The notes: generated from the sequence alone by a model not told the origin. A stretch of DNA of 52,691 nucleotides from a virus (IMGVR_UViG_3300046467_000501:1-52691); one strand, 5' to 3'. Numbered from the stretch's first letter, positions 1-49,008 are shown. Numbers and translations: made by a program.

Positions 1-138
1 GACGGGGTTTCAGCCGCCCTCTCTGCGCTTCGTGCCAAGATACAGGCAGAGTCTCAGGAAACACTACGCGAACGTGACCGTCTTTTACAGGAGAATCTCG
101 CCGCCCAGAAGAGAGCGATGAGGGAGGAGACACCATGA
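1..138 (+). CDS. 5'-truncated hypothetical protein
   Basis: Frame 1 is open from base 1 to TGA at 136-138 (DGVSAALSALRAKIQAESQ...EETP); the stop overlaps the next ATG (ATGA). Confidence 0.6.
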   Translation, partial: DGVSAALSALRAKIQAESQETLRERDRLLQENLAAQKRAMREETP

Positions 139-350
139 AAGCCAGAAGAATCAGAGTGTACGACACCGTTATCGAAACCTACGAGGTGCTCGTTCCTGTG
201 GGTACGAACCACGATGAAGTAGATGAGATCTTGGCCGAAGGTGACTTTGCTCGTATGGACATAGAGCACGACCGACGCCACCGGGATTGGATTTTTACTT
301 CCAACCATACAGAAGACATCGAACTGACCACGGAGATAAAAAATGGCTGA
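135..350 (+). CDS. hypothetical phage protein (71 aa)
   Basis: GGAGGAG RBS upstream; overlaps both neighbours. Confidence 0.75.
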   Translation: MKARRIRVYDTVIETYEVLVPVGTNHDEVDEILAEGDFARMDIEHDRRHRDWIFTSNHTEDIELTTEIKNG

Positions 351-543
351 GAATCAATGGAAGGGTTGGGTGTGGCCGTGGGAGGGCAAGAAACGAACAG
401 CGGCAACGACGCTCATCGGATTGGGCAAGATGCACGACAGGCTACTGCGTAGACGAGTGTGGGTTTACCAAGGCCCAGAAAAATACAAGCCAGTGTTGCG
501 TATCAAACAGATCGTCTCAAAGGAGAAAGAATCAAATGACTAA
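343..543 (+). CDS. hypothetical basic protein (66 aa)
   Basis: GGAG RBS; overlapping operon arrangement. Confidence 0.7.
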   Translation: MAENQWKGWVWPWEGKKRTAATTLIGLGKMHDRLLRRRVWVYQGPEKYKPVLRIKQIVSKEKESND

Positions 544-775
544 GACAGCGATCCAACACGAACACAAAGAATTTATCGACACGATTCTGGACAAGGTAAA
601 GACTCACTCACGACTAGTGTCGATGGGCGATACCATGCATACAGTTAGAAGGGGAGCGAGCCCAACAGATCATCGTGATTGGCACAGTAACCTCCGCAAA
701 GAAGCAGATACGTTGATCGAAGACATAGAGAATTCCCTCTACCGTAGGCTAGATGAAGTCGGAGACTCAGAATGA
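536..775 (+). CDS. hypothetical protein (79 aa)
   Basis: AAGGAG RBS before ATG at 536 (MTKTAIQHEH...); preferred to the longer 287 start in the ORF track. Confidence 0.7.
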   Translation: MTKTAIQHEHKEFIDTILDKVKTHSRLVSMGDTMHTVRRGASPTDHRDWHSNLRKEADTLIEDIENSLYRRLDEVGDSE

Positions 776-987
776 CAGTCACCAAGCAACACCTAATAGA
801 TCTAGAAGATGTCTGTGCTATCTTGTCAGAGATGGACACGGAGCTTGATGGATCAATGCACACCTGCACCTCATGTGGACGGGAATCATGGGAGGATCTC
901 CAAGAGGGAAGGCTCGCCAATGAGATAGCACTCATGCTACGCAAGACCCGCAGGTGCATCGGCATGGTCAGAGAGACGGTGAAGTGA
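772..987 (+). CDS. hypothetical protein with CxxC
   Basis: GGAG RBS, ATGA coupling, CTSC motif. Confidence 0.7.
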   Translation: MTVTKQHLIDLEDVCAILSEMDTELDGSMHTCTSCGRESWEDLQEGRLANEIALMLRKTRRCIGMVRETVK

Positions 988-1235
988 GAACCCGCAAGGC
1001 CAGACGACTGCTGAGACGGGGGCTCCGTGCCTCCAAGATCCGGGGCCACCGACCCGCACTCGTCTCCCACTTGGGTGCGATCAAGGTGTACGGGTGCAGG
1101 GCAAACGGATGTAACGCCATCTTAGAATGTTGGGACAATCCCGATACCGTGTCTGGCTCTATGGTTCACACCAACTGCAACCATCTAGAGCTAGGGTGGC
1201 TCCGAAGACAGCTACTGAAACTGACAGCCATTTAG
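984..1235 (+). CDS. hypothetical basic, Cys-containing protein
   Basis: GTG at 984 overlaps the previous stop (GTGA); in frame with track ORF 954..1235. Confidence 0.6.
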   Translation: MRTRKARRLLRRGLRASKIRGHRPALVSHLGAIKVYGCRANGCNAILECWDNPDTVSGSMVHTNCNHLELGWLRRQLLKLTAI

Positions 1236-1245
1236 ATTCGGGCAC

Positions 1246-1306
1246 AAAAAAAACCTCCCAAGCTGTCTGTGTAACTCATCGGGGGACACACAAACAACTC
1301 AGGAGG
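1246..1306 (-). terminator. Rho-independent terminator
   Basis: 19-bp stem followed by T8-GTGCCC on the minus strand; faces the plus-strand operon ending at 1235. Confidence 0.75.
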
Positions 1307-1350
1307 GGGGCATGGTAAGAGGAGGAACCATGCCGCTTTTACAACCCACC
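1246..1350 (-). ncRNA. candidate small RNA: anti-SD-loop hairpin plus long terminator hairpin
   Basis: 8-bp stem 1309-1316/1327-1334 with minus-strand loop UCCUCCUCUU; 19-bp stem 1254-1272/1288-1306 whose mismatches are G-U pairs only on the minus strand; U8 tail; promoter upstream. Confidence 0.5.
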
Positions 1351-1355
1351 AATAT

Positions 1356-1383
1356 AATTTACCAACTACAGACTCAGAGTCAA
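1356..1383 (-). promoter_or_regulatory. sigma70-like promoter
   Basis: TTGACT-16 nt-TAAATT with a TGn extension, directly after the stop of ORF 1387..1554. Confidence 0.5.
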
Positions 1384-1386
1384 TCC

Positions 1387-1554
1387 TCAAGTGTGCGGAC
1401 GATCACCAAAGTTTTTGGAGATTCCCTTCTGCACACTCTTTTCGGTAACCCAATGGGTGTTCCCGGCAAGCCAACCATAGCGGATTCCATACCTCACGCC
1501 CAACCCCACGCACACACCCAACAACACCAACGTCTTCCAGACTTTACCTTTCAT
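1387..1554 (-). CDS. small protein with N-terminal hydrophobic segment (55 aa; below ORF-track cutoff)
   Basis: MKGKVWKTLVLLGVCVGLGVRYG...; GAGG upstream; overlaps the stop of the upstream gene. Confidence 0.6.
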   Translation of the reverse strand: MKGKVWKTLVLLGVCVGLGVRYGIRYGWLAGNTHWVTEKSVQKGISKNFGDRPHT

Positions 1555-2047
1555 CCTCTTCCTCATCAGAGGTGGAACTAATGAGTGGCCGTATCATTAC
1601 CTTGAACGCATCAAACAATCCAAACTTGTTACGCACAAGAGATTGTTCAAGCTCATCGGTTGCCCGCTTAACACCTTTTAGATAAGGCTTGGTGTAAGTC
1701 TTCCTGTAGGCTCTGACCTCTTTCTCAGTCTGAGCTATGTAGATGCCACGCGCACAGTAAAGAACGGGAAGCACCAGTTCCTTGGCACAGTAAAACTTGA
1801 ACCTTGGGTGATGCGAGTTGAACCAAGATCTAGCTGGCCTCTCAAACTCTGTAATCGTTGGGTCCCACAACCCTACTACGGTATCCCAAAGAAATTCTTT
1901 GGACTTAGCCCTAGCCTCACCCATACAATGTTCTCTCAGTAATTTCACAAGCACATCGTAATAAACAACTTCCTTCCTACTCCATTCTGACAAGCCCTTC
2001 TCATCCATTGGCTTCTCCACTATCGCCATCTCCATTCCGTTAGACAT
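1544..2047 (-). CDS. hypothetical protein, possible winged-helix DNA-binding protein
   Basis: HCMGEARAKS...LPVLYCARGIYIAQTEKEVRAY resembles a phage wHTH pattern; overlaps parB-like gene. Confidence 0.6.
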   Translation of the reverse strand: MSNGMEMAIVEKPMDEKGLSEWSRKEVVYYDVLVKLLREHCMGEARAKSKEFLWDTVVGLWDPTITEFERPARSWFNSHHPRFKFYCAKELVLPVLYCARGIYIAQTEKEVRAYRKTYTKPYLKGVKRATDELEQSLVRNKFGLFDAFKVMIRPLISSTSDEEEDER

Positions 2048-2960
2048 TAGAGAGAACCTCGTCTAAGGCGATAATTTCTTTTGTAATAATGCTGTGCCTA
2101 CGGGTAGTAAAACGGATTGCCTCTGGAGAAAATCTGGCGGGAGATTCTGACGCCTCTTTAATTGCATCACGATACGCAGTCATTGCGTCCATGTAATACT
2201 TCACTATCGGCTCGTCTGTTATCTCCGCCGATCTACGTTTTTCAGACTTGCGATCAGCATCCATGCTTGTAGCCCTGAGTTCCTGCTCAAAGCTGAAATC
2301 TCTACGCTTCGGGTGGCGCACCTTAATCACTGTGCTCCTTTCCCTTGCACTTGATGCGGCGTTGTGGGCCGCCAACACCTCTTCTGTTTGACCTAAATTC
2401 AATTCCTCCGAAGTAAATTTATCAGCAATCTTCCGCTTCGCTTCCCAGTCACCCTTTGCCGCCATGGCTATGGCAGTTTTTCTTAAAGATATTTTTCCAT
2501 CACTATTATGTACTACGACTCCATTATCCAGTCCCTTCAATGCTTGCATTGATCTATTTATTGTGGGTTGAGTACACCCTACCATCTGTGCCAATTCAGT
2601 TTGGCTACAGCCAAGCTTCTCTAAAAGATTCGCATAGCCACGAGCTTTTTCGACAACATCAACATCCTCTCGACATTCATTTTCCAATACCTGTTTCAGT
2701 AACGCTTCCGAATCATCAACATCCTCTACGATAGCCGCTATCGTTTCAAGTCCAGCCCTCCTCGACGCTTCAGTTCTGCGATGACCGTAAACAATCTCAT
2801 AGCCCTTGCCGTTTCGGCGTACCTTGATGGGCACCTCCTGCCCCTGCTCCTTGATAGATAAGGCCAGTGCATCCAAAGCTTCTTCGTCAAACGTGACACG
2901 AATCTGATCCTTCGATGGCCTCAGATCCTTGAGCGGTACATTCTCTACAATCATTTTCAT
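2040..2960 (-). CDS. parB: ParB/Spo0J-like protein (ParB N-terminal domain + HTH)
   Basis: LALSIKEQGQEVPIKVR, YEIVYGHRR, LENECRED motifs, then HTH SQTELAQMVGCTQPTINR. Confidence 0.85.
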   Translation of the reverse strand: MKMIVENVPLKDLRPSKDQIRVTFDEEALDALALSIKEQGQEVPIKVRRNGKGYEIVYGHRRTEASRRAGLETIAAIVEDVDDSEALLKQVLENECREDVDVVEKARGYANLLEKLGCSQTELAQMVGCTQPTINRSMQALKGLDNGVVVHNSDGKISLRKTAIAMAAKGDWEAKRKIADKFTSEELNLGQTEEVLAAHNAASSARERSTVIKVRHPKRRDFSFEQELRATSMDADRKSEKRRSAEITDEPIVKYYMDAMTAYRDAIKEASESPARFSPEAIRFTTRRHSIITKEIIALDEVLSNV

Positions 2961-2967
2961 CCCCCTT

Positions 2968-3495
2968 TTACAATTTTTGAAGTGTCACCATGTCATGCGA
3001 CTTGCCGCAATGGTGTATCGCATCTAGTAGTGTGCCAATCGGGTGAAGAGCGGACTGAGGCACCATCCAATTTGGATACTCAATCGTGTCGTCCCACCAC
3101 TCATCCCGCCTCGCTTCGTCAGGACCAATCCATCCCCGAACAAAAAATACCGGCGCGATACCCGTAACGAGGACGAACCACCGATCTTCTGGGTCAGTCC
3201 GTTTGACTGGGAGCCGGTAGTTGTGACCGGGTGTCGTTCGAACCTCAATGCAATGAAGCAGGTCTGGCCCTTTCATCGTGCCCATCCCCGGAGGCCAGTA
3301 CACGCCAAGACACTTCCCCACCGCGCACTCGCCACAAGCTCCCTCAATGTGGGCATCCCACCCGCTTTTGGTGAAGCCACCCGCCCGTCCCCTGCCGTGC
3401 GCCCGGTTCGCAGACTCCCGCGCTACCCCAGAGAAAGCGGCGAACGCCATCTCTGACGCCGACAGGGTGATTTCCTCGCCCCTTGTATCACTCAT
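2968..3495 (-). CDS. conserved phage protein, possible PD-(D/E)XK-fold nuclease
   Basis: GACGECAV, PD...IEVRT and VRGWI motifs. Confidence 0.6.
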   Translation of the reverse strand: MSDTRGEEITLSASEMAFAAFSGVARESANRAHGRGRAGGFTKSGWDAHIEGACGECAVGKCLGVYWPPGMGTMKGPDLLHCIEVRTTPGHNYRLPVKRTDPEDRWFVLVTGIAPVFFVRGWIGPDEARRDEWWDDTIEYPNWMVPQSALHPIGTLLDAIHHCGKSHDMVTLQKL

Positions 3496-3562
3496 TCTCC
3501 ATCCTATGACAGACGCCCGTGTACCGCGCCTTCATTTCCGGCTGGGTGAGGGTGACTTGCAT
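3488..3562 (-). pseudogene. 24-aa mini-ORF, possible remnant of a paralogue of the downstream gene
   Basis: MQVTLTQPEMKARYTGVCHRMENE versus EEITLSASEMAFAAFSGVARESAN; fills the intergenic gap. Confidence 0.3.
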
Positions 3563-3563
3563 A

Positions 3564-4037
3564 TCAGTTCATGGTCATATCAGAAGGATCAATCGTTATA
3601 CCTAGGTTAGTGCCCACCTTCTTCATGAACACAGGCTTTAAGGTCTTCACCAAAGGACTGTCATCACCTACTTCCTTAGCTTTATCCAGCATATCCTTGG
3701 TGACCTTCTCGTCGTTCAGCCACGGATGGAGATCCTTCATGTCACTCAGCATAAACGAAACAAGCAACGACTCTCCGTCACCCTTGGTGAAAACCGTTTC
3801 TATATTCGCATCACAATTGCAGGAGTAGAGGTGGGCGAGTGCCTCATCTGAGGTGGGCTCATGCCCGCCCGTCATATCTTTTCTCTGCTCCTCTCCTTCC
3901 ATGCGCTGAAAGATGTGACAATTATCTTGGTGCAAGGTTTCAATAACTACCATCGACTCATTATCTCTGGCCAGACTGTCTATCAACAACACAATGCAGG
4001 AGATCGTGTCTCCATTGTTGCCCTCTAAAGCCACCAT
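3564..4037 (-). CDS. hypothetical protein (157 aa)
   Basis: ORF in the minus-strand operon, overlapping the RHH gene stop. Confidence 0.7.
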   Translation of the reverse strand: MVALEGNNGDTISCIVLLIDSLARDNESMVVIETLHQDNCHIFQRMEGEEQRKDMTGGHEPTSDEALAHLYSCNCDANIETVFTKGDGESLLVSFMLSDMKDLHPWLNDEKVTKDMLDKAKEVGDDSPLVKTLKPVFMKKVGTNLGITIDPSDMTMN

Positions 4038-4207
4038 TCTTTCTCCCTTTTTTTGACAACCTTAGATGTATCAATTTTGGCCGCGCTATCCACATACGCT
4101 TTAAGTATATCACGCATCAACTGTGACGTACTCACGCCGTCCTCTTCAGCGAACCCACGGAGGGCGGAGAGTATATCACCCTCCACCCTCAACAGGAATT
4201 GATCCAT
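4025..4207 (-). CDS. ribbon-helix-helix (CopG/Arc-like) DNA-binding protein
   Basis: MDQFLLRVEGDILSALRGFAEEDGVSTSQLMRDILKAYV; ATG follows the upstream stop. Confidence 0.75.
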   Translation of the reverse strand: MDQFLLRVEGDILSALRGFAEEDGVSTSQLMRDILKAYVDSAAKIDTSKVVKKREKEWWL

Positions 4208-4208
4208 C

Positions 4209-4502
4209 TTAGAAGGGGAGTCCATCGTCCTCTTCGTCATCGACACCCACGGCAACACTCTGCATCGGTTGGATCTCCAAGCGGGCATTCTCATAGTCGA
4301 TGCCCTTCTTCGATGTCCTGTTCCAGATAGCTACCCGAACCGTAGGCATCTCGCCTTCCTTCGCGTGAGACACCATCTCCTTCAGAAACTCCCTAGTGAA
4401 TTCAATCTTCCCCGACTTCACCGGAGCTTTAGAATTTTCTTGAAACTGATTCTTGAAGATTGCGAAGTCGATCTTAACTACGTTGTCGTATTGATTAGCC
4501 AT
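4209..4502 (-). CDS. putative single-stranded DNA-binding protein
   Basis: Small beta-rich protein with acidic tail DDEEDDGLPF; next to the annealase. Confidence 0.65.
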   Translation of the reverse strand: MANQYDNVVKIDFAIFKNQFQENSKAPVKSGKIEFTREFLKEMVSHAKEGEMPTVRVAIWNRTSKKGIDYENARLEIQPMQSVAVGVDDEEDDGLPF

Positions 4503-5250
4503 TGAGCAGTTCCCCTTGTTCGTCTCTGTTATCGTTGAGTTTTAATGCAGCCTTCGACAATTCGTTTACTGACTGGACGAGTTTCGCTATCGCCTTGGTG
4601 TCTTTGCTTTTCAGCGCGGCCTTGATCTCGCCTTGGGTCTTGGAGTCCGGTAGCCAACCCGCTTGAGCCGCATCATTGCAAGCTTCCTTCAATGCCATAG
4701 CCATCTCATCACCTGAGACGGCTCCGTTCGATGTCGGCACCTCCACCTTCTCAGCTTTCTTGGCCTTGGCCTTCGCCTTTGCCTTGGGCTTCGCCTTCGG
4801 CGGTGCCACCTCTGCTACGGGAGCAGTTACCTCTTCCGTGGGAAGGCCGTCCCCACTGTAGATGTAATTAGCTAATCCATGAAGAGAGAAGCACTTGGTC
4901 AGGCATCTCATTTTCGCATCAGAAATATCCCGTGACGAGGGATGAGCGATGCTCTTCATCCTGTAATCCATAACAGGCAACCACATCTCCCGAACCACAT
5001 CACCAATTGTCACCGAACAACTGACCGATGCAGTACCACCCTCATAGTAAGTGGCATCTCTGGTGACGCCCTTCTCGTCAGTGGTGCCATGCCATTTGAT
5101 TGTCAACTCAGGATAATTCTCCATCATAATCCTGTAGGCATGACTCCAACTCAGGTAGGTCAACCCACCCTTCTCTTCCGTGAACTCATTGACGTTGATC
5201 TTCGACAGCGTCTTCCATATCGACGCCGCGCCCAAACTCTTAGCTACCAT
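4495..5250 (-). CDS. Sak3/DUF1071-family single-strand annealing protein
   Basis: TLSKINVNEFTEEKGGLTYLSWSHA, MWLPVMD, MRCLTK...HGL motifs; start MVAKSLG at 5250 after GAGG. Confidence 0.8.
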   Translation of the reverse strand: MVAKSLGAASIWKTLSKINVNEFTEEKGGLTYLSWSHAYRIMMENYPELTIKWHGTTDEKGVTRDATYYEGGTASVSCSVTIGDVVREMWLPVMDYRMKSIAHPSSRDISDAKMRCLTKCFSLHGLANYIYSGDGLPTEEVTAPVAEVAPPKAKPKAKAKAKAKKAEKVEVPTSNGAVSGDEMAMALKEACNDAAQAGWLPDSKTQGEIKAALKSKDTKAIAKLVQSVNELSKAALKLNDNRDEQGELLNG

Positions 5251-6097
5251 TTCCTCTTCCTCCCTTCCATTGTGGGCAAAACTCCGCAACCTCACACCAA
5301 CCTTCACACCGGACATACTTCGCATCACCATCAACGATATTGTATGAACCAGTTTTCTGCTTGTTGACGTAGTCGGTTGCCTCTCTCATCGTGTCGAACG
5401 AACGTGGCTTACCACCTCCACTGTGCGTGGGGTTCACTTGATAAGCACCCCTAGCCCATCGCTCTTCGGGTGTACATGGGATCGTGCTTTCCCGTACATG
5501 AACACGGACCCGCTGATCCACATAATCATCCTGCCGCCCATCCCTCCACATGGGCACGGATAACACAACGACTGGACTATTCGGGTAATCGTACTTACCT
5601 ACCCTCGACTTCATCCAGTCACGACAAATACATACGATGCTTAACTTGGTGGCAGTGATGTCATTCTGCCTGAGCAACCAAGCGTAGAGATTTAGCTGCT
5701 TCTCCCAATCTTCTTTTAACCCACGCTGTACGGAGTAGGTTGATGTCACCTTGTAATCAACAATGGAACCATCATCTCTTATAAGGTCGATGGCACCGCT
5801 GATCGTGACACTATAGGGCGGGATCGAAGTCGTATGTTCAGCGTGGAACCTTTGTTCTTTGGTGCCCTCGCTATCTGCCTGTTCAATTGCAGCATGAACA
5901 CCAGTACCTAACAGCTTCCAAATCTGTTCTCGTACATCAACAGTGATGTCATCCTCGTGCTTGTTCCACAGGCGGCGAATCTGTGGGGGCTTGATCAACT
6001 CCGTAACACTGAAGTCTGCCCCGTCCTTCGTATATGGATCGTTGCGGACAGCATCCACAATCGAATCCGGTGCGCCATAGTTGTTTGTGAGTTTCAA
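5240..6097 (-). CDS. PD-(D/E)XK (Cas4/RecB-like) exonuclease
   Basis: GTGVH, SGAIDL, IVDYK, QLNLY motifs and a C-terminal Cys cluster; TTG start with GGAGG. Confidence 0.8.
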   Translation of the reverse strand: MKLTNNYGAPDSIVDAVRNDPYTKDGADFSVTELIKPPQIRRLWNKHEDDITVDVREQIWKLLGTGVHAAIEQADSEGTKEQRFHAEHTTSIPPYSVTISGAIDLIRDDGSIVDYKVTSTYSVQRGLKEDWEKQLNLYAWLLRQNDITATKLSIVCICRDWMKSRVGKYDYPNSPVVVLSVPMWRDGRQDDYVDQRVRVHVRESTIPCTPEERWARGAYQVNPTHSGGGKPRSFDTMREATDYVNKQKTGSYNIVDGDAKYVRCEGWCEVAEFCPQWKGGRGNGS

Positions 6098-8857: not shown

Positions 8858-8886
8858 TTGACAAGATTGATACAGGGTGTTAGGTT
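8858..8886 (+). promoter_or_regulatory. sigma70-like promoter
   Basis: TTGACA-17 nt-TAGGTT. Confidence 0.7.
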
Positions 8887-10440: not shown

Positions 10441-10744
10441 CTTCTCTAAATTTTGGGTTGTTGTCTAACAGTTCAGGACGCTGCAATCTTTTAGCCGCTT
10501 GTGCTATGCCCGATGCCACCGCTCCAACTTGAGGGGCGAGGTACTGAGCCACCCGTGGACCGCCTGCCCATGCAACGAGGCCGATCACCAGACTTCCCAA
10601 AAGAACATACGCAGGTTCTGGTACGTCCCAGATCATGGAGTCGAGAACGATGAGGGTGCCCGTAAAAGCTAGAGATCCGAAAAGGAATGTTCTGGCAGCA
10701 CTGAGGTTGCCGCGCTCATCTGTGAGTATTTCTTTTATCGGCAT
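10427..10744 (-). CDS. putative holin
   Basis: Two TM segments, charged C-terminus, directly upstream of the endolysin. Confidence 0.7.
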   Translation of the reverse strand: MPIKEILTDERGNLSAARTFLFGSLAFTGTLIVLDSMIWDVPEPAYVLLGSLVIGLVAWAGGPRVAQYLAPQVGAVASGIAQAAKRLQRPELLDNNPKFREDDEG

Positions 10745-13700
10745 TATGGCCTCGTACCCAAGGCAGCTTCCATCACACTACGTTCTTCCCTTATGTCGCC
10801 CATAATATTGACCATCTCCGCGAGCATATCATCACGAATCTCAAACATTCGGAAGAGTTGTCTGCGCTTGTCGTCATCGGACAGATCGGTTCTCTCAAAT
10901 AATCTGTCGCGTTCCGTCCGGTAATGCTTCATGCGGCGTTCAAAATACTGGAGCCGTCTCTTGGCATCGAACATCCCTTTATGTTCTTGCTCAAACTCCT
11001 TTGCCTCCTCATATCCCCGGCCTTCCTTGATCTGGCCCAGCGTGGTGACCAGTGTGTTCATGTCTTCGACGGCCTCATAGAAATCTTCTTGGAATCCTCC
11101 ACCTTTCTGTGCATCATATAGGAGGTCACCAAGCATCGGCATACTAGCTACGGTGCGCCAATCAAATCCGAAGTCAGCCGATGTTCCTACCACATTTTCG
11201 TCCGTCGCTTCACGGGCGAGACGATCAGCCGCAACAAAGAGGTAAGACCCTAGCGTACCCCCGTACTGCCTCATCATATACTCAAGCTTCATGGGCGAGT
11301 TCAAGAAGTCCACGTTCTTGAGGAACGGGATATCATTCAACTTGTCTCCGACCAATCTCGTGATCATGCTCGTGTACGGATTGTATTGCTCGCTCGCCAT
11401 GACAGTGTCTTCCATCCACTGCGGCACAATCGCGTCTCTTTGGTAGGCATCCTTATTTGACCATGCGTCAATCATCGGACGTATGAATTGCGGCCTGAGA
11501 TCCATCATCAGGGAGCCCTTAATTTGTCGTGCCATTTCGTCCCTGACATCCCTGACATCATGTTCCTGTTCAAACATCATCCTCAGTATCTGCTCAGGTA
11601 TAACCTTGTAGAGAGTGCCAACCTCAAACGGTATCGGGATTTTGACATGGAGGCCGTTGCCCATAGGTATCAGCCACCAATCGTTCTTCAAGTCTTCGCG
11701 GGTGTTCTTATACTCCTCGTCATCCTTGACCATGAAGTAGTACATGGCGGTGGCCCCAATGAAGAGCGCACCCCTCGACACGGCAGTCAGTTGTCTTTGT
11801 GTCCGTAATGTTTTGCTATCTACATCCGTGACTCCCTCTTCCCCGAACAATCCGGGTGCGTCCATTGAACCAGCGTGTGTCCTATAGGTTACATCCAGAC
11901 CTTGGATACGACCGTTCAAGAATGGGGACATCGCTGTCATTACAGCGAACATGGGACTCGCGCCACGGCGTCCATAGTTGATGATTTCTATCGCCTGATG
12001 GAGTGATTCGGCAGCGTTCCCGTCCGTCTTGGCCATGGTGTTGTCGTACACAGCCATCCGTGTCGCAACCTCAGATCGCTTGGACATATCACCCAGAACA
12101 TCCCACAGATTGACCGCCCAGTCGAGTGGATTCAGCCAAGCAGATGGTGACGACAGCTTACCCCTCTTCTGCTTCTTTAACTTCTTCCTAATATCTACTG
12201 CCGCCGGATCGTTGGGATCAGCCTGCCAGTCAACGGCAATCCCCAGCCCTCGCTCTTCAGCCCTTACCAGAATATCCGGTGTCGCAAAGTTCGCCATTGC
12301 CTTGAAGAACAAGGCTGGCCCACCTCCGTAGTTGACGGAAGCTTGCCATGAATCCCTGATGATGTTCTTGATCACAAAGGGTGGTGAACGCACGACCGCT
12401 TCACGCAGGATTTTTGCAGGCCCCACGACAAGCTTGGTCAGCCCTTTCCTAAGCCGCTCGTTCTTGATGGCCTTACCAAAGAAGTCCTCAATCGCTTGCT
12501 GTGGGCTGAAGCCTATGCTCATAATCGCACGGGACAATTCGGGATCTAAGACAAGGTAGCTTTTAGAAATTCCAGCTTCTTCGATACCAGTTGTTTGGTT
12601 TTCGTTATTTAAATCCGTCGATATACCCTTGGCCGTGACGATCATAGAGGAGAAACCACGCTTTTTTAAACGCTCCATCTGGTCACTTCTCTGTTCGTTT
12701 AGCTCTGTTATCGTTGCGTTCAGTTCAGTTAACTCCGTTGCCATGTCCTGTGGCATATCTTGCGTCTTCAGTTTCGCGTACTTCTCCTTTTGAATTTGCA
12801 GATACCTTTGACGGCTGAGTTGCTCGTCGGACGGTTCGATCAGTAATTCGGCAGTGCCGTTAGCAACCTCGTCGCGCATTGATCTGGTCGTGGCAATGTT
12901 GGTCATGCCATCTCTGATCATAGCTTGAACATTGCGCTGTAGGTTACCGAACAGATCGGTGCTAATTGGGAGCAAGCTTCCCCTGATCTGTTGGTCGATG
13001 AGAGGCCCTCCACGGGTAGCCACCTCCTTCTCTGCTCCTTCTGATACCGCCTTATCTTTCTTTTTTCTAACATTTTCATTCTCGCTATTGGACATGGGAT
13101 CATTATTTTCCCAGCCCATATCCCTATAGAACGGGATGAAGCTCAACTCCTGCATTATCTCACCGCGCTCAATGCTAACCAGCCCCGTGTCCATTCCAAA
13201 TTGAATCACATGGTGGTTGAAGGTGGCATACTCTTTGCCAAACTGAACGATGGCGAGATCCATCTCCGCCTCACTTGATTCAATTCTCGCAATTTCTGCC
13301 TTTGCATCGTCAATGGGTATGTTTCTCTGGCGAGGAGTCTTGAGCGGATTGGCATCATCATATGCCTGCTCCCAACTCTCCTTATTTCTTCTCGCCGCTA
13401 TGATGTCATCTACACTAGCCCCTGTCTGGATTAAAGCATCTAGTTCTTGTCTCGCCACTTCTCTCTTGGCCTGAAGGTCAACCACACGTTTCGCGGCCAT
13501 ATAGATAGTTGCACTAACTTCAGCGGCTTCACCCATCTCAACCAATGGCCCAATGATCTCATGCAGACCTTTGACATCACGCTGAAGCCTGAAGCCGCCA
13601 TCTACATAGACGATCATACCATGCGACATCACTCCGGGTATGAAGTTCATTGCATTGTCGGCAATTCTCCACGCAGCTACTGCTGAGTTCTCTGCCAGCC

Positions 13701-16700
13701 TGCTGAGAACTTCACCGTATTTCGCTATCTCCCTTTGCCACGCACGTTTTGAGGACTTCCAAGTGGCTAAACGCCTGTCAGCGAAATTCAACCTGAATTT
13801 CTCTCTTATGCTGTACTCCATCATCTTTTCAAAATCTGCTCTAGTTCCTACAAACTTTGGCCTACCGTCCTCGTCTGTCCCAACTTGGTTGTGGTAGTCT
13901 GTCGCATTGACTATCTGCTCTCCCCCGGATACACCACTAGATCCTTCTACCCATCCCTCATCAATAAATCTCTGGTTAGATGCTTCCGTCTCACTAGGTG
14001 TGACCACATCGGTTTTACCAAACCGGAAGAGACGAAGCTCTCGACTGTCGGTAGGCATACGATACGCTGGCTTCCGGCCATCCTTGAACCTGAAGTAGGC
14101 ATTCAATGATTCAAGGTCGATGTCACCATCCTCTATCGCCTTCGCATTGAGCATGGGTGATATGAAATTAGGGGTGCCTTCAATCTGTCTTCGTGCGCTC
14201 AGTTCACTGATCAGAGATTCCTGCAACCGCTGGTGGGGGGTGAGGGTTGGATCAGAGAACTCAAAGGTAGAGTCCAGTATTATATCTATGGCTTCGTCTA
14301 TTTTTGCGGGATCACCATCCTTGACGGCGTCCCTCAATCGCTTGGCATCCTCTGGTCTGGCCCGTTCAATGAGGTGCAGCGACATCACACCGTCCGGTGA
14401 TTTCGCCTTTTCCCTTCTGCGCTTCATCGTATCCACGTTCTGGAGCTTCTCAAACACCTCCAACACAGGGAGTATGTCCGCCTCTTCGGCACTACTCGCT
14501 ATGGCACCGAACACCGCCTTTAGCTGACGCTTGATCTTGCCGATTAGGCCAGAGGTTCTAGCCACTGGGATCTTGTCCTGAACAAGGGCGTCCAAAATAT
14601 GGACAGACGTTTCTTCTGTTAGTGCCTCACCCTCAAGCCGGGGGATATTATTCTCATCCGTGTAGACTTCCCCAACATACTCTCGCCAAGTCAGCCCCCG
14701 CTCATGGGCATTTGAATCAACTTCTTTGGGCACTCTGGTGCGACCATACCTATCCAATGCCTTGCGGTCGCCGTCGTTCAACCATTGTCTGACGAAATGA
14801 ATATGCGCCCCTTCGTGGGCCACGGCGTCCTTGATCAGGGTTTCGATGTCGGCCTCTTTATGCTTGCCCACAATCTGCGAGAGATTGAAAACTATCCGGT
14901 TACCATAGTTTTGCAGGGAAGCTACGGCCCCACCTTCATATGTGGGTCTGTATATGGGATTGTCATTGGCATCTTTTGCCAACTTCGGCTTGCCATCTTC
15001 TATGATGACCTTGCCATTCTCGTCCATCTCGACCACAAAGGCCCCATTGATTATGACATCCTTCACTTGGGCCATCATATCGTCCACGTTAGCCGTGAAC
15101 TCAACAATGACATTCTCCAAGCCAAGCTTCTTGAGAGTCCTCGTTACGATATCCTTATATTTTTTAACCCTTTTACTCGCTTCTTCTATGCTTTTGGCAT
15201 CACCAACTATTTGATCTTGAGGCTTAACATCAGCCATGATACCCTCACTAACTTCCCGCAGGGTCTTTGCTAACTGTTCTTTCTCTTTCTTGGCTTGTTT
15301 CGTCCTGTCTGGTATGGGTTCAGTACGCAAAACACGCTCAAAAACCATTTCTTGTTGACCACGACCCAAGTCACTCCAATCGACATCGGTGCCCAGTGTG
15401 TCACTGATTAGTTCTTTAAAGAACTTTGACTGGAATAAGCTACCCGACCTCTTCCACTGCGATACTGAGAAATTCTTTATCCCTAACAGTTCCTTGAAAA
15501 CATTTTCCGTGAGATCGTATCCACTTTTCTGGAGTTTTTCGATTAACTTTTTAATCCTACCATCAGCCAACTTGCCCAGAGTAATACCAACCCAATCCTT
15601 GGGTGGTCTTTGATCCATGCCCTCTTCTTCAATTACGTCCGCTAGAGGATCTATCGCAGCTAATCCTAGGATAGCGTCCACGGCTCTCTTGGCTTGAGTT
15701 CTGCCATGTGCCCTGCCTTCTTGTGCGGTGCCCCTTGGCCCAGCGCGTGTACTTGGCTTGGCTTCTATCGGGGATACCATGGGCCTGCGAACGGCCTTGG
15801 CTGGCACTGTCTTGCGGTGGGGAGACGCTTGCCTGCCAGTCCTGCCCGACTGCGTCCATCTTAGACTTATCCCTTCACCACCAAGGATGCGTTCGACATA
15901 GCTAGTGGCCTCTGCGGGGGTCATGCTTAGTTCTGCGTCTGCGTCTGCGGCTGCGGATAGGGCAGCTAATTCCCTGTAAGCCTCCCTTTGTTCTGGGCTG
16001 ACCAAATATTCTTCAAGTTCAAAGTTGCCATCGGGGTCAGCGGGATCTGACAAGGTGTCGATAAGGACAGGACGAGATTCGATTTCACCATAAGCTTCAT
16101 TTATTCTTCTGTTCTGATATTCTTCACTTTGCAGTTGTTTCAGTCCGCCAACTATGCGATCTCTACTGCTATTTCTAATCTGTTTTATGGCCTCTTCTTT
16201 GAATTCTGCAAGCGACAACTTTGTTATTGGCTTGCCCTTTTTTATGATGACGTTGCCATCCTTATCCCTCTGCGGGGGATCAATGTCAGGGAATTCTTTA
16301 CGCATCTTTTTTTCAGTAGCGACATCAATCGCCTTCAGGCTCTTGGCTAATTCTTCCTTTGCCGTTTTCACACCATCGCTTGCAAGCTGATCAAGCGTTG
16401 ACGGTTCAATAACGACATCGCCTTCATTGAGAGAATCCAGAAGGGCTTGGTCACGCTTTAGTCCCCCTTCAAGTCTTCTGACCTTATCTTCGGGGCTCGT
16501 CGCATTCTCCAACTGTGTTCGTAGCTCGTCCCTCCTTTTTATAGAATGATTGTACTCTCTCCTAGACCTTCTTTGGTTATCTATGTCCGTCTTCGTTGCG
16601 GGTAAAAGCGAAGCTGGATGAATCGCATTCTTTCTTGGGGTGCCATCTTTCTTGGCGGGGATCGAAGGAATCTTTCCCGCCTCTGTAAGGTCATATTCAG

Positions 16701-18939
16701 CGTTGCCCTCTGCATCTATTGCAACCGTACCCTGTATCAACCCATGATCTAGTTCATCCCTTATAGCTTCCTCTTCTGCCGCTATCAGGCCCTCAATGAC
16801 CCCTCTTTCATTTGCAAGAGCCTGACGTTGTTGAGGGCCTGCCTCCACCCCCGACTTCCATGACCCTGTGTCTTCATCGTATGTCGCTATCTTCTCTAGT
16901 TCCTTCCTTCTTTCAATAACTCTCTCGTTTAGGTGAGCCCCCTGCTCCGTATACTTAAAAACATCGGCATCGATCTTATCTTCTGTCTCAATGATTTTGT
17001 CCGCAGTTAACGGGAGCAGTCGTTTTTCGACCTGATCAACAACTTCCGTGACTGGTATGCTCGTCTTGGATGGCATCACATCTAGGGTAGGCACGGGCGG
17101 TGCCGCTGGCTCTAGTACGTTTCTAATGCCTTCAATATGTTTATCTAACTCCCCTACACGCTGATCATCCCTCTTTTTTCTAGCCTCCTTACGCTCTTGC
17201 TCTGCCTTCTCAAGTTCGTTGTTCAAGAGAATATCGTCATCGGGCTCCGCGACTATTCTTTGCGCTTCTAGCGTAGCCTCCGCTGCTTTCTGTTGTGCGG
17301 CGTCAATGCCAGATTCTTTTAGGGCAAGTGTAGACCCCAGAATGAGCATTTCTCTATCAAAGTTGGCGAGCCTATCATCTATCTGTCCTACAAATTTATC
17401 ATGTTCAGATTGGGTTATGGTTCCTGCTTTCAGGTCATCTGCTAGGCGTTTTTTTGACCTTATAGCCCTCTCTTTATTCGCCCCTGTTAATGAGTTTTTC
17501 CCTTGCTTCCTTCTGACAGATCCATCTTTGTTGAAGATAAGGTTGCCATCTCTATCTCTGGCAAATACTGAGGCACGAAGCGCATTAAGGTCTTCATCTT
17601 CCTGAATTGCCGCATCAAGTTCCTCATCAAGAGATGCTTCGGCAGCTTCTATCTCAGTTTCAGTTTGTCTTATTGCATTGTCCCGCTCTTGCTGTGTTTC
17701 ATTCGGCATTGATTCCCATCTAGCGAGAATCTCTTCTCTTGCAACTTGTTTACGTCTCTCTACATCAGCACTAACAGCGTTCAAATCGGGGCCAGTGATT
17801 AGTCGATCTATGTCTGCTTCTTGGAACTCTCCCGCCGCGACCCTTTTCTCGTAGCGTTTTTGGACACGCCTGTTAAGGTCATAATTTCCTCGCTGTCCTT
17901 TCACGTTAGCTACCGCTCTAGCACTCATCTTCAACATCAGATCGGTAACGGCACCAACCTCACCACCGATCAGTGCTTCCCTGAGTGCTTCGACACCTGC
18001 ATCGGCCATAGCTTCCTCGTCATACATATACCTAGCCACGGCAGACTGACCGAATCCTGCGAGTCCTTCCTGTATTGCTTCGTCTCTAGCCTGTCTTATG
18101 GCCGACTTACCGATCTGACCCCAAGTCATATCAGCAGCATTGGCGACCACCCTCTGCGTTGCTTCAGACGCTCCCTTCCTGCCAAGCCCTATGCCTTTGG
18201 CATATTTACCCAAGGGTGCTATTTCGCTCAAGCCAATACCAAGGCCCATACCAAGGGACAGGATCTCTTTGGCTTTGCTAATATCTTCACCAGTGCGCTC
18301 TTCGTACTCAGCCATCCTTCCGGCCTGCTCACCAGCACCCATGAGAGCGGTCGCAACGCCCGCTACACCCGTTGCAGCGGCACCACCCAATCCCAACGCA
18401 CCAGCCCCTGCGCCTAAGCCGATCATTCCACCTACCTGCCCAAGTCCCATGCCTAGGTGGACTAGGTTGGCGTCCCGATACTTGGGATCTACTTCCATCA
18501 TAAGATCGTTAAGTCTCTTTCTCAGTGCTTTTTCACGGTCAGTGTCTCTATCAGGGGTACGAAGACCTTCTGCGCCCTGTAGGGCCATTAAGCCGAATTG
18601 CCTAACTCCTCGCGGTATGCTCTTGATACCTTCCCACGCTGACCCAAGGATGGTGCCCCCAGCTTCAGTGCCGTACTCATCGGGAGGAGGTTCTTGCAGG
18701 GAAGGGATACCTACCTGCCCAGAGGGGAATCGGGCTTCCATCATTGCTTCAAGATTGGCTGATCTCTCTGCAAATGATCCACGATCTTGTGGCTCTGGCT
18801 GCATCTGTGGCTGTGGCGAGGGTGTCCCGATGTTAAACCTTGTCCTGAGTTCCCCCGCTATTTTATTGCGCTCTTCTATAGAAAGGTTATCGGGGATCTC
18901 TATTACGGAGCCATCGGGCAGACGAATCGTTTCCGGCAT
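10744..18939 (-). CDS. giant internal virion protein (2731 aa) with zincin HExxH motif and C-terminal LPD38-like domain
   Basis: HEGAH at 14803-14817; C-terminal PFLNGRIQG and WWLIP...KIPIPFEVG; last gene of the ejection-protein cluster. Confidence 0.7.
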   Translation of the reverse strand: MPETIRLPDGSVIEIPDNLSIEERNKIAGELRTRFNIGTPSPQPQMQPEPQDRGSFAERSANLEAMMEARFPSGQVGIPSLQEPPPDEYGTEAGGTILGSAWEGIKSIPRGVRQFGLMALQGAEGLRTPDRDTDREKALRKRLNDLMMEVDPKYRDANLVHLGMGLGQVGGMIGLGAGAGALGLGGAAATGVAGVATALMGAGEQAGRMAEYEERTGEDISKAKEILSLGMGLGIGLSEIAPLGKYAKGIGLGRKGASEATQRVVANAADMTWGQIGKSAIRQARDEAIQEGLAGFGQSAVARYMYDEEAMADAGVEALREALIGGEVGAVTDLMLKMSARAVANVKGQRGNYDLNRRVQKRYEKRVAAGEFQEADIDRLITGPDLNAVSADVERRKQVAREEILARWESMPNETQQERDNAIRQTETEIEAAEASLDEELDAAIQEDEDLNALRASVFARDRDGNLIFNKDGSVRRKQGKNSLTGANKERAIRSKKRLADDLKAGTITQSEHDKFVGQIDDRLANFDREMLILGSTLALKESGIDAAQQKAAEATLEAQRIVAEPDDDILLNNELEKAEQERKEARKKRDDQRVGELDKHIEGIRNVLEPAAPPVPTLDVMPSKTSIPVTEVVDQVEKRLLPLTADKIIETEDKIDADVFKYTEQGAHLNERVIERRKELEKIATYDEDTGSWKSGVEAGPQQRQALANERGVIEGLIAAEEEAIRDELDHGLIQGTVAIDAEGNAEYDLTEAGKIPSIPAKKDGTPRKNAIHPASLLPATKTDIDNQRRSRREYNHSIKRRDELRTQLENATSPEDKVRRLEGGLKRDQALLDSLNEGDVVIEPSTLDQLASDGVKTAKEELAKSLKAIDVATEKKMRKEFPDIDPPQRDKDGNVIIKKGKPITKLSLAEFKEEAIKQIRNSSRDRIVGGLKQLQSEEYQNRRINEAYGEIESRPVLIDTLSDPADPDGNFELEEYLVSPEQREAYRELAALSAAADADAELSMTPAEATSYVERILGGEGISLRWTQSGRTGRQASPHRKTVPAKAVRRPMVSPIEAKPSTRAGPRGTAQEGRAHGRTQAKRAVDAILGLAAIDPLADVIEEEGMDQRPPKDWVGITLGKLADGRIKKLIEKLQKSGYDLTENVFKELLGIKNFSVSQWKRSGSLFQSKFFKELISDTLGTDVDWSDLGRGQQEMVFERVLRTEPIPDRTKQAKKEKEQLAKTLREVSEGIMADVKPQDQIVGDAKSIEEASKRVKKYKDIVTRTLKKLGLENVIVEFTANVDDMMAQVKDVIINGAFVVEMDENGKVIIEDGKPKLAKDANDNPIYRPTYEGGAVASLQNYGNRIVFNLSQIVGKHKEADIETLIKDAVAHEGAHIHFVRQWLNDGDRKALDRYGRTRVPKEVDSNAHERGLTWREYVGEVYTDENNIPRLEGEALTEETSVHILDALVQDKIPVARTSGLIGKIKRQLKAVFGAIASSAEEADILPVLEVFEKLQNVDTMKRRREKAKSPDGVMSLHLIERARPEDAKRLRDAVKDGDPAKIDEAIDIILDSTFEFSDPTLTPHQRLQESLISELSARRQIEGTPNFISPMLNAKAIEDGDIDLESLNAYFRFKDGRKPAYRMPTDSRELRLFRFGKTDVVTPSETEASNQRFIDEGWVEGSSGVSGGEQIVNATDYHNQVGTDEDGRPKFVGTRADFEKMMEYSIREKFRLNFADRRLATWKSSKRAWQREIAKYGEVLSRLAENSAVAAWRIADNAMNFIPGVMSHGMIVYVDGGFRLQRDVKGLHEIIGPLVEMGEAAEVSATIYMAAKRVVDLQAKREVARQELDALIQTGASVDDIIAARRNKESWEQAYDDANPLKTPRQRNIPIDDAKAEIARIESSEAEMDLAIVQFGKEYATFNHHVIQFGMDTGLVSIERGEIMQELSFIPFYRDMGWENNDPMSNSENENVRKKKDKAVSEGAEKEVATRGGPLIDQQIRGSLLPISTDLFGNLQRNVQAMIRDGMTNIATTRSMRDEVANGTAELLIEPSDEQLSRQRYLQIQKEKYAKLKTQDMPQDMATELTELNATITELNEQRSDQMERLKKRGFSSMIVTAKGISTDLNNENQTTGIEEAGISKSYLVLDPELSRAIMSIGFSPQQAIEDFFGKAIKNERLRKGLTKLVVGPAKILREAVVRSPPFVIKNIIRDSWQASVNYGGGPALFFKAMANFATPDILVRAEERGLGIAVDWQADPNDPAAVDIRKKLKKQKRGKLSSPSAWLNPLDWAVNLWDVLGDMSKRSEVATRMAVYDNTMAKTDGNAAESLHQAIEIINYGRRGASPMFAVMTAMSPFLNGRIQGLDVTYRTHAGSMDAPGLFGEEGVTDVDSKTLRTQRQLTAVSRGALFIGATAMYYFMVKDDEEYKNTREDLKNDWWLIPMGNGLHVKIPIPFEVGTLYKVIPEQILRMMFEQEHDVRDVRDEMARQIKGSLMMDLRPQFIRPMIDAWSNKDAYQRDAIVPQWMEDTVMASEQYNPYTSMITRLVGDKLNDIPFLKNVDFLNSPMKLEYMMRQYGGTLGSYLFVAADRLAREATDENVVGTSADFGFDWRTVASMPMLGDLLYDAQKGGGFQEDFYEAVEDMNTLVTTLGQIKEGRGYEEAKEFEQEHKGMFDAKRRLQYFERRMKHYRTERDRLFERTDLSDDDKRRQLFRMFEIRDDMLAEMVNIMGDIREERSVMEAALGTRP

Positions 18940-47545: not shown

Positions 47546-47992
47546 ATGCGGTACATCACCATCACCACGGACTCCCTCTATCAACGTCTTATGGACAACG
47601 TCAGCGCACTAGCAGACGCCAACGTGTCCAAGATGGTAGAGGCAGACACGGACGAAGGGGTAGAGCTTCCCTTCAGCCCCGCCGATGCGTGGGAAGTTGA
47701 AGAAGAAGACCAGATTTCCGACCTAGGCTTTCTGACCGTCTACTACGAGAAGGTACACGATCCCAACGCGGACGATTACCAGTCTCGTTCGCTCGTTCCT
47801 GTCGAGGTCTTCGAATCGAAAGCGGGGAACATCTTGATGAGGGCCTACGATTTCCGGGCGGGATTCGTGAAAAGCTTTAGGCTCGACTCTGTACAGCGTA
47901 TCCTGATTCGGAACCAGAATCTGGGAGACTCCGAATGGGGTGTTAGAGACATCACATTTCGGGGAATCTCAGAGCGGTCCGAATCACTCTAA
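47546..47992 (+). CDS. WYL-domain protein
   Basis: LTVYYEK...RSLVPVEV...LMRAYDFRAGFVKSFRLDSVQ matches the WYL pattern; AAGGAG RBS. Confidence 0.7.
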   Translation: MRYITITTDSLYQRLMDNVSALADANVSKMVEADTDEGVELPFSPADAWEVEEEDQISDLGFLTVYYEKVHDPNADDYQSRSLVPVEVFESKAGNILMRAYDFRAGFVKSFRLDSVQRILIRNQNLGDSEWGVRDITFRGISERSESL

Positions 47993-47998
47993 CCCTTC

Positions 47999-48027
47999 AC
48001 AGGGGGGGGAGCATCTAGCTCCCCCCC
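47999..48027 (+). repeat. intergenic G/C hairpin, copy 1
   Basis: ACAG, stem GGGGGGGAGC/GCTCCCCCCC, loop ATCTA. Confidence 0.8.
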
Positions 48028-48054
48028 AGTACTTCACACAAGAGGAGAAACACT

Positions 48055-48312
48055 ATGTCACATCCGGGCAACGATCAGATCATCGACGCAATGCGCGACA
48101 AGATGCCTAACCTTACACCCGACCAGATAGGTCGATTGGTTTACCTGATCGATGCATATGGTAGGCATCAACATACACTGGGCCAGTTGAACATGATCAA
48201 TACATCCGATAGAAGCTCTGCATTCGATAAGCTTCGTGTCGAGTACACGCAACACTCTAAGGACACGAGGGAGGAGATCACAGAGATCATCGAGATCCTG
48301 TTCGACTACTAA
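48055..48312 (+). CDS. hypothetical protein (85 aa)
   Basis: GAGGAG RBS. Confidence 0.75.
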   Translation: MSHPGNDQIIDAMRDKMPNLTPDQIGRLVYLIDAYGRHQHTLGQLNMINTSDRSSAFDKLRVEYTQHSKDTREEITEIIEILFDY

Positions 48313-48316
48313 CAAA

Positions 48317-48362
48317 ACAGGGGGGGGGATTCACCCCCCCCCATCACCCCCAAATCGGGGAG
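48317..48362 (+). repeat. intergenic G/C hairpin, copy 2, plus SD mini-hairpin
   Basis: ACAG, G9/C9 stem, loop ATTCA, then CACCCCCAAATCGGGGAG. Confidence 0.8.
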
Positions 48363-48369
48363 AACGAAA

Positions 48370-48741: not shown

Positions 48742-48746
48742 GAAAG

Positions 48747-49002: not shown

Positions 49003-49008
49003 ATCAAG

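Follow-up and report, generated by a model that had tools for sequence, protein, structure and literature searches.

The sequence at positions 1246–1383 of the phage genome IMGVR_UViG_3300046467_000501 sits between two convergent gene sets, and the question is whether it encodes a small RNA of its own and, if so, how such an RNA would act. The window (the whole stretch of DNA analysed, 52,691 bp) is a complete IMG/VR virus record with an estimated completeness of 91%. It encodes tailed-phage genes (large terminase, portal, head protein and primase/helicase), and its terminase shares 55–60% identity with the terminases of Pelagibacter phage HTVC027P, phage 023Pt_psg01 and phage DSL-LC04. The window is present in DNA runs labelled marine or seawater metagenome, with seven rows that contain at least half of the sampled words. 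The best explanation overall, to which we give a probability of roughly 0.6, is a self-contained phage sRNA gene whose anti-Shine-Dalgarno (anti-SD) loop would occlude ribosome-binding sites (RBSs).

The minus-strand operon that points towards the element consists of a ParB-like gene, a 167-codon gene and a 59-codon membrane-type ORF, and ends at 1387. Homologues of the 59-codon ORF share the motif GV(R/K)YGWLAG.THW and are found upstream of the element in many, not all, relatives. The coordinates of the element and of its flanking genes are summarized in Table 1.

Table 1. Predicted parts of the sRNA element and its two nearest genes, in window coordinates.
Feature	Position	Strand	Basis
83-codon Cys-rich gene, GTG start, convergent to the sRNA	984–1235	+	protein alignment; 32 relatives in marine metagenome contigs
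U8 tract, predicted 3′ end	1246–1253	−	sequence
SL2, 20-bp predicted terminator stem (1306–1287 with 1273–1254), 13-nt loop	1254–1306	−	fold; five G.U pairs
SL1, perfect 8-bp stem GGCAUGGU/ACCAUGCC (1334–1327 with 1316–1309)	1309–1334	−	RNAfold
SL1 loop UCCUCCUCUU, anti-SD-like CCUCC inside	1317–1326	−	fold and loop conservation
Predicted single-stranded 5′ leader, 16 nt, GGUGGGUUGUAAAAGC	1335–1350	−	start predicted at G1350/G1349
Extended −10, TGg and TAAATT (hexamer 1361–1356)	1356–1364	−	promoter scan and conservation; T1364 G1363 = TGn
−35 hexamer TTGACT	1378–1383	−	promoter scan and conservation
59-codon small membrane-type ORF	1387–1566	−	stop 3 nt before the sRNA −35

RNAfold gives the minus strand a free energy of −47.4 kcal/mol (z = −5.2; 0/200 shuffles as good) and returns exactly the SL1 plus SL2 structure, in which the two hairpins are separated by two C's; the plus strand reaches −37.9 kcal/mol (z = −2.8; 3/200 shuffles as good). 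The original prediction had described a perfect 8-bp hairpin followed by a long stem and U8 on the minus strand, and had proposed the folding of both strands as a check. All the parts are present at the positions that it gave, the described hairpins are recovered exactly, and the minus strand folds better. Only the count in the long stem needs correction, from 19 bp with four G.U pairs to 20 bp with five, and the accompanying claim that the wobbles are G.U on the minus strand only holds: the five SL2 G.U pairs would become A.C mismatches on the plus strand. Across the 20 distinct variants of the element described below, the minus strand folds better in 19, with a mean of −43.0 versus −32.2 kcal/mol. 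A T-rich tract follows the SL2 stem in 20/20 variants, and its uninterrupted first T-run is 4–8 nt long. SL2 therefore carries both the stem and the U-tract of an intrinsic (Rho-independent) terminator, as which it is predicted to act; a simple terminator scan omits it because the 13-nt loop exceeds the 3–8 limit of that scan. The U-tail and an A-run before SL1 are features relevant to Hfq, which may bind this RNA. A 52-codon TTG frame (1232–1390, minus strand) crosses the element. No frame is kept across it, because the relatives differ by indels in the loops, with seven SL1 loop lengths and further indels in the terminator loop.

Relatives of the element were collected through the neighbouring proteins and a DNA pattern. 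The convergent 83-codon protein, not the RNA, was used to gather 32 metagenome loci (63–98% protein identity), three viral loci of related contigs were reached through the upstream 167-codon protein, and L044, a further contig, through the DNA pattern. A covariance model built from 18 sequences finds the full-length element in 31 of the 36 sources, namely the window, three viral loci and 27/32 metagenome loci, with E-values of 5.5e-33 to 8e-17 for the full-length copies. Among the other loci, L073 is cut by the contig end and gives a partial match, and L084 and L088 stop about 100 nt or less from the 83-codon protein; L086 and L087, which are identical, have enough flank yet contain no element. 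Removal of 11 matches that duplicate another locus over the element leaves the 20 distinct variants.

By terminase, HTVC027P, 023Pt_psg01, DSL-LC04 and MinM2 are the nearest cultured or deposited phages, and the model matches none of these four, while the positive control G001 is found. No similar sequence is returned by blastn of positions 900–2100 against GenBank phages. Rfam yields no family at the gathering score over the whole window, and at E ≤ 10 over 1150–1500 the sole match is to an unrelated lncRNA model with 9.6 bits. A DNA pattern for the exact hairpin has 0 matches. A loose hairpin pattern retrieves 57 stretches from viral contigs, of which only six, from three contigs, are real by blastn; three earlier loci of those same contigs are likewise real by blastn, and three other loci give matches of 18–23 nt only. 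A second hairpin pattern retrieves 18 stretches: the model, applied to 17 of them, matches only L124, and the eighteenth is the known L044. A pattern scan of 185,579 species genomes gives three matches, none of which is confirmed by the model. An apparent second copy within the window (48997–49091; 13 bits, E 0.1) is a G-run/C-run hairpin cassette and was rejected as a paralogue.

The stems of the element covary. In a model-fitted alignment of the 20 variants, which leans towards structure, 98.7% of 451 cells pair and 11/23 pairs are doubly changed (28 cells). None of 500 column shuffles reaches the observed value for any of five covariation measures, and when the partners are slid by 1–3 columns, pairing falls to 38–55%. 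A MAFFT alignment of 18 sequences made without structure likewise contains double changes in 11/23 pairs. The terminator helix accounts for nine of the 11 covarying pairs (9/16 modelled SL2 pairs). SL1 was re-aligned without structure over 17 distinct sequences, leaving out L098 and L090, which are identical there, and L075, which has lost the 5′ arm of SL1. In this re-alignment 99.1% of 116 cells pair and 3/7 pairs are doubly changed, while the four one-sided changes all lead to G.U and none to A.C; 0/500 shuffles reach the observed covariation. The covariation controls keep the relatedness of the sequences, which inflates statistics of this kind. The collection of homologues and the covariation check that accompanied the original prediction come out in its favour, with the element in 31/36 sources and compensatory changes in the stems. 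Because the G.U pairs fall on one strand, the stems change in a compensatory manner and the U-tract lies on that same strand, selection on the structure of a minus-strand RNA is highly probable.

While the stems change, the loop of SL1 keeps its core; a loop not conserved in relatives had been named in advance as a refutation. CCUCC is the commonest 5-mer and occurs in 18/20 distinct SL1 loops, and CCUCCU occurs in 16/20. The loops come in seven lengths (10–16 nt) with variable 5′ parts, and CCUCC is usually followed by more U's. The two loops that lack CCUCC are those of L072, which has CCCCCC, and L093, which has UUUCCCUU. In composition-matched loop shuffles CCUCC occurs in a mean of 1.44 of 20 loops with a maximum of 6, and 0/2000 shuffles reach 18. 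These comparisons support selection on an anti-SD-like motif in the predicted loop.

A promoter consisting of TTGACT, a 16-nt spacer and TAAATT with TGn had been proposed on the minus strand and is present where it was placed, the spacer ending in TGG. The promoter scan scores the site at 9/12 matches, with TG. A match of this quality is by itself not above chance (8 sites in 6 kb versus 5.5 ± 2.3 expected), so that the reality of the sRNA promoter rests on conservation. Across 19 variants the −35 hexamer is TTGACT in 16, TTGACG in two and TTGAAG in one, and the −10 is TAnnnT in 19/19, at 16–18 nt from the −35. The combination TTGAC(T/G)-16..18-TAnnnT thus occurs in 18/19 variants, and the remaining one has TTGAAG-17-TAACTT. 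The hexamers are kept although the spacers are unrelated in the distant variants L090, L089, L093 and L100. With a naive scorer, the sRNA promoter ranks first among the sigma-70-like sites over 127 nt in 15/19 variants, 12 of which place the end of the −10 exactly 21 nt ahead of SL1. Among 3800 control segments, a best site of such a form is seen in only 2.2%. In L094, L078, L089 and L093 the scorer favoured another site, and the homologous hexamers are visible in the sequence. Promoters of like type, TTGACA-17-TAG(A/G)TT, precede three other predicted ORFs of the window, at 8858–8886 on the plus strand and at 50978–51006 and 51727–51755 on the minus strand. The spacing of 16–18 nt and the retention of TTGAC. 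and TA...T are those of a sigma-70-type promoter, which is predicted to be active, and the sRNA probably has this promoter as its own. The start at G1350/G1349 is predicted by position, since it lies 6–7 nt past the −10. In the putative leader, a GUGGG motif and the A-run are kept in most variants. Pairing of the conserved 5′ GUGGG with CACCC motifs of phage leaders was considered and rejected, as it is inconsistent between variants when compared by eye.

The element could instead be nothing more than the end of the minus-strand operon upstream of it, with SL2 as the terminator of that operon, SL1 as a 3′UTR hairpin with a stabilising or regulatory role and the hexamers inactive. The arrangement in the window lends itself to this reading: the 59-codon ORF stops immediately before the −35 and no terminator lies between the ORF and the sRNA promoter, so that operon transcripts would enter SL1 and SL2, and the promoter match has only chance quality when taken singly. 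The upstream mRNA should consequently share the hairpins of the sRNA as its 3′ end in the window, and read-through from the operon should end at the same predicted SL2 terminator. However, the hexamers and their spacing are kept in distant variants over unrelated spacers, and homology with the relatives starts at the −35, whereas the genes upstream of it differ. The neighbour on that side may be the membrane-type ORF, a C-terminal extension of a longer form of the 167-codon protein, a 75-codon ORF or, in L075, a 69-codon ORF, and some relatives carry there homologues of two genes that lie beyond ParB in the window and in L044. A divergent frame of 139 codons begins 16 nt upstream of the −35 in L100, and the immediate neighbour in L083 and L085 is likewise a divergent frame, whose N-terminus looks by eye like a signal peptide. 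In these three loci no co-directional mRNA is at hand to supply the RNA, which therefore cannot be a 3′UTR there. A 3′ end also offers no reason for the conservation of CCUCC in the loop. We consider this reading unlikely and conclude, on the comparison of sequences, that the predicted unit is probably transcribed independently. The stretch from 1383 to 1246 on the minus strand is very likely a gene of its own for a phage sRNA of about 105 nt.

RNA contigs from three RNA runs, with one DNA run alongside, were compared with positions 1–6000 and match several phage genes exactly at a depth of 2–4; none covers 1201–1400, and such contigs cannot show ends or strand. The obligate linkage to a small membrane-peptide gene that characterizes type I toxin-antitoxin systems is not seen. 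An ORF of the 59-codon type lies immediately upstream in the window, L079, L070, L072, L074, L090 and L093 (7/17 among the variants listed), no membrane-type ORF ends beside the element in L080, L081, L075, L089, L100, L044 and L078, and in L083 and L085 such an ORF lies about 440 nt away, beyond the divergent frame. The sRNA is, moreover, co-directional with the 59-codon ORF and not antisense to it.

The convergent side of the locus suggests another role: like lambda OOP, the RNA could regulate the plus-strand operon as a cis-antisense RNA, through cutting of the duplex or by blocking read-through into the minus-strand genes. The predicted 3′ end of the sRNA is only 11 nt from the stop of the 83-codon gene (1235, plus strand). 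The sole plus-strand hairpin followed by U's is the complement of SL1 followed by GCUUUU, with 4 U's in the window and 5–6 in distant variants, and plus-strand transcripts would for this reason cross most of the sRNA gene. In 27/32 loci the element is found no more than 1.5 kb downstream of the 83-codon gene, a linkage that is built in by the sampling. Antisense complementarity holds whatever the sequence, however, and leaves the retention of CCUCC unexplained. The G.U pairs weaken the plus-strand hairpins, in keeping with the better fold of the minus strand in nearly all variants, and in L093 the 7-bp stem on the plus strand would contain two A.C mismatches. As the principal function an antisense role is improbable; it is compatible with the best explanation, an sRNA gene with an anti-SD loop, and could be a second role of the same RNA.

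For this preferred explanation, the following course is proposed. A host RNA polymerase of the sigma-70 type would start at about G1350/G1349 from TTGACT-16-TGgTAAATT, and transcription would stop at the SL2 hairpin and U8, giving an RNA of about 105 nt with a short G-rich/A-rich leader, SL1 and the terminator. SL1 would hold open a pyrimidine loop of 10–16 nt and display CCUCC(U), the core of the anti-SD sequence of the ribosome. The exposed loop would then pair with RBSs of the GGAGG or GGGGG type on phage or host mRNAs and keep 30S subunits off, which would lower translation. A leader, a hairpin with an open C/U-rich loop and a U-tailed terminator constitute the design of base-pairing sRNAs that occlude RBSs. 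Occlusion by the loop is the best-supported mechanism, with somewhat better than even odds.

Within the window, the loop had been predicted to be complementary to the RBSs near 124, 8911 and 48042, and it is: the starts at 135, 8925 and 48056 give −14.0, −13.5 and −13.0 kcal/mol. Together with 5250 these are the starts with the strongest SDs, and their range of −13.0 to −14.0 kcal/mol with the loop corresponds to about the top 1% of 5000 random 28-nt segments of this genome. Pairing between the loop and these strong-SD start regions is what would be expected of any strong SD. None of the best non-self loop sites in the window is at a start codon; they fall in coding or antisense DNA and in G-run hairpins. 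The complement of the loop 10-mer, with at most one mismatch, occurs 8 times versus 4.4 expected (7/100 shuffles reach 8), and GGAGG is not enriched in the genome (131 observed versus 133 expected). Phage genes mostly have SDs of the GGAG type, 48/68 reaching −6 kcal/mol against an anti-SD probe, a figure that derives from crude gene calls and is biased upward by the choice of the best start per ORF. An anti-SD core of 5–6 nt would by itself not make for a specific target, as it would pair with almost any strong SD.

The ParB-like gene is the one candidate for a specific target. In G001, the contig that contains L003, all 12 nt of the loop pair with the SD and AUG of this gene, one of the pairs being G.U, and the site ranks first among the non-self sites over 34 kb. 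The loop flank also fits the ParB-like start region in L044. The ParB-like start ranks 6th in L044 and 17th in L022, and lies outside the top 12 in the window (−11.1 kcal/mol). A scan of viral sequences for more loop/ParB pairs added none. The ParB-like start was rejected as a conserved target, as it is top in only one of four genomes and at least two relatives, L078 and L081, lack a ParB gene between the sRNA and the next gene on its upstream side. The targets of the sRNA may be host messages.

A still bolder proposal, which we regard as doubtful, is an RNA-based shut-off of the host. The anti-SD mimic, made early by the host polymerase, would cover strong host RBSs of the GGAGG type, or would imitate host sRNAs of the cuckoo type and take over their regulon. 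Translation would in either case be re-directed to phage messages with a shorter GGAG(A) SD or with SDs hidden in their own C-run hairpins.

The lack of a preferred message also bears on the possibility that the RNA is a decoy or a protein-binding RNA, in which the anti-SD mimic, instead of pairing with mRNAs, titrates a protein or nuclease that recognises this sequence. Of the loop, only the CCUCC(U) core and the U's after it are conserved and the flanks are free, which fits generic recognition better than a specific mRNA seed, and no conserved mRNA target is found in the four genomes compared, the window among them. On the other hand, no candidate partner has emerged and no protein gene is consistently linked upstream, and the RNAs with anti-SD-like or C-rich loops compared here are, in the available parts of their sources, reported to pair with mRNAs or proposed to occlude RBSs. 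A decoy is thus quite unlikely, and pairing of the loop with RBSs is preferred.

Least probable by far is a plus-strand translation start, in which AGGAGGA-ACC-ATG at 1330 would open an ORF (1312/1330–1581), an outcome that had been named in advance as a refutation of the sRNA: an ATG follows the purine motif by 4–8 nt in 16/20 variants and close relatives share the first residues MPL(L/F).PT, but this ATG belongs to the stem (CCAUGCC), is absent in L089, L093, L100 and L075 (4/20), and is lost in L089 through a joint change of both arms (GCGUGG/CCACGC) that keeps the helix, while the frames vary from 10 to 140 codons, and share only those residues that promoter DNA encodes, and the frame of the window has no Pfam family, runs antisense through the 59-codon ORF, which is conserved at the protein level, and changes register in L002. 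A gene or short peptide at this position is accordingly rejected, given the loss of ATG with compensatory stem change and the absence of a shared frame. Two further candidates were set aside. A CsrA-type GGA loop would require the plus strand, whereas the evidence on strand points to the minus strand, and in L072 the loop in question contains no GGA. An inverted repeat acting at the DNA level, such as a ParB site, does not accord with the G.U pairs, which make the repeat asymmetric between the strands.

The closest analogues of the predicted sRNA are the cuckoo/ar14 sRNAs and the c4 RNA of phages P1 and P7. According to the available part of the cuckoo paper (PMC4615179), the cuckoo/ar14 family (RSs0680a–d, ReC11, L5; Rfam RF02344) consists of alphaproteobacterial sRNAs and is common in the Rhodobacteraceae, which include marine bacteria. 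Its members contain 2–4 adjacent hairpins, each with CCUCCUCCC in the loop, with loops of 9–27 nt and stems of at least 6 bp; the same text leaves open whether RBS occlusion is global or specific (PMC4615179). SL1, with its 10–16-nt loop and 7–8 bp, is within the limits published there (PMC4615179), and as in that family the stems vary by compensatory change while the loop keeps an anti-SD-like C/U motif. In contrast to the family as the excerpt describes it, the element has a single motif hairpin (SL1; the SL2 loop is without the motif), keeps a core 5–6-mer CCUCC(U) instead of the 9-mer, and is located on phage contigs between phage genes and not on a chromosome beside the neighbour gene OG1. 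It also has no RF02344 match at the gathering score or at E ≤ 10. The predicted sRNA would work alike to cuckoo/ar14 but is not a member of that family.

The c4 RNA of P1/P7 blocks the ribosome-binding region of the ant mRNA, and its complementary sequences are thought to lie in loops, as stated in the available excerpt (PMC12197685). The element resembles c4, as there described, in being a phage-encoded small RNA with a loop complementary to RBS sequences, the pairing being predicted here. In contrast, the same excerpt gives c4 a defined target in its own operon and a specific complementarity that sets heteroimmunity, whereas the element has a generic anti-SD core and no single conserved target. 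No sequence or Rfam relation exists between the sRNA and c4.

Further parallels are partial. Two C-rich loops are present in the RNA 6C. In Mycobacterium tuberculosis, a Gram-positive bacterium, C-rich loops of 6C bind several mRNA targets, according to the part of the report available (PMC6486639). With 6C as it is presented there the element shares a C-rich loop; it differs in that the phyla are different and that no Rfam match is found here. Lambda OOP acts by full antisense overlap with the 3′ end of cII, and DapZ and MicL are 3′UTR-type sRNAs with their own promoter. Like these three, the element combines a predicted promoter of its own with a predicted intrinsic terminator at the end of an operon, faces a convergent gene and would share its terminator with the upstream mRNA. 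Unlike in OOP, the conserved feature is the loop motif, which antisense overlap does not need.

The predicted sRNA is, on these comparisons, a new family with no Rfam counterpart but of an already established design, that of anti-SD or C-rich loops. A literature search turned up no account of this RNA, nor any of anti-SD-loop sRNAs from marine phages, which is not proof of absence. The regulatory RNAs known from lytic or environmental phages are very few, and to our knowledge none comes from this uncultured marine phage clade. Since anti-SD and C-rich loops are an established sRNA design, the kind of regulator is not surprising. What is unusually clear is the comparative support, as promoter, structure and loop motif are each conserved separately across 20 distinct variants. 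The element would add a phage case to the issue of global versus specific action of anti-SD loops that is raised in the available text of the cuckoo study (PMC4615179), and it provides a defined, testable RNA family for the question of whether phages steer translation by anti-Shine-Dalgarno mimicry.

The sRNA gene, a minus-strand unit of promoter, SL1 hairpin and terminator, faces a convergent gene for an 83-codon protein, which probably starts at GTG and belongs to no Pfam family. Contigs from marine metagenomes yielded 32 relatives of this protein; in 27 of these, the gene is followed downstream by the sRNA gene. On the minus strand, a 59-codon ORF overlaps the end of a 167-codon gene by 23 nt. 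The encoded 59-residue protein retains a GV(R/K)YG(I/W)..GWLAG.THW motif in many relatives, as well as the C-terminal RP(H/Y)(T/L), and this conservation marks the ORF as a genuine small gene of membrane type. The homologues of the 167-codon protein in three related loci (L002, L003 and L044) are 245–260 codons long, and their additional C-terminal part of ~80 residues is missing from the window protein.

Features located in the window and their positions
Feature	Position	Strand	Remarks
83-codon protein gene	984-1235	+	Four conserved cysteines; basic N-terminus
59-codon ORF	1387-1566	-	One hydrophobic stretch
167-codon gene	1544-2047	-	Compared with L002, L003 and L044
ParB-like start region	2950-2985	-	
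Sigma-70-like promoter	8858-8886	+	Intergenic; TTGACA-17-TAG(A/G)TT
Array of small genes	47990-49065	+	G8-10/C8-10 hairpins in gaps
Sigma-70-like promoter	50978-51006	-	Intergenic; TTGACA-17-TAG(A/G)TT
Sigma-70-like promoter	51727-51755	-	Intergenic; TTGACA-17-TAG(A/G)TT

The sRNA itself varies among the related loci. An additional hairpin of ~27 nt is inserted into the leader in L094–L098, and the 5´ arm of SL1 is lost in L075, which still has its promoter and terminator as well as the CUCCUCCUUU stretch. In G001, the contig of L003, the 12-nt SL1 loop is complementary over its full length, with one G·U pair, to AAAGGGGGAUGA, which comprises the Shine-Dalgarno (SD) sequence and first AUG of a ParB-like gene and is, over 34 kb of sequence, the best non-self site for the loop. 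The loop flank and the ParB-like start region are both changed, together, in L044. Across the four genomes compared (the window, G001, L044 and L022), the match between the loop and the ParB-like start region is not consistent.

The sRNA promoter falls into one class with the three sigma-70-like sites, all of which precede a predicted open reading frame and two of which are followed by GGTG. These three sites are probably early promoters of the phage, used by the host polymerase. Elsewhere, a single ORF of 2731 codons (10744–18939, minus strand) occupies part of the structural half of the genome.

Every gap of the small-gene array contains a G8-10/C8-10 hairpin that is perfectly paired and lacks a U-tract, and two related contigs, L022 and G001, have G-run hairpins of similar type. 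In three of the four gaps, the hairpin is followed by CACCCCC, 5 nt, GGGGAG and ATG, so that a C-run could pair with the SD sequence in cis. The hairpin unit is a repeated, putative regulatory cassette.
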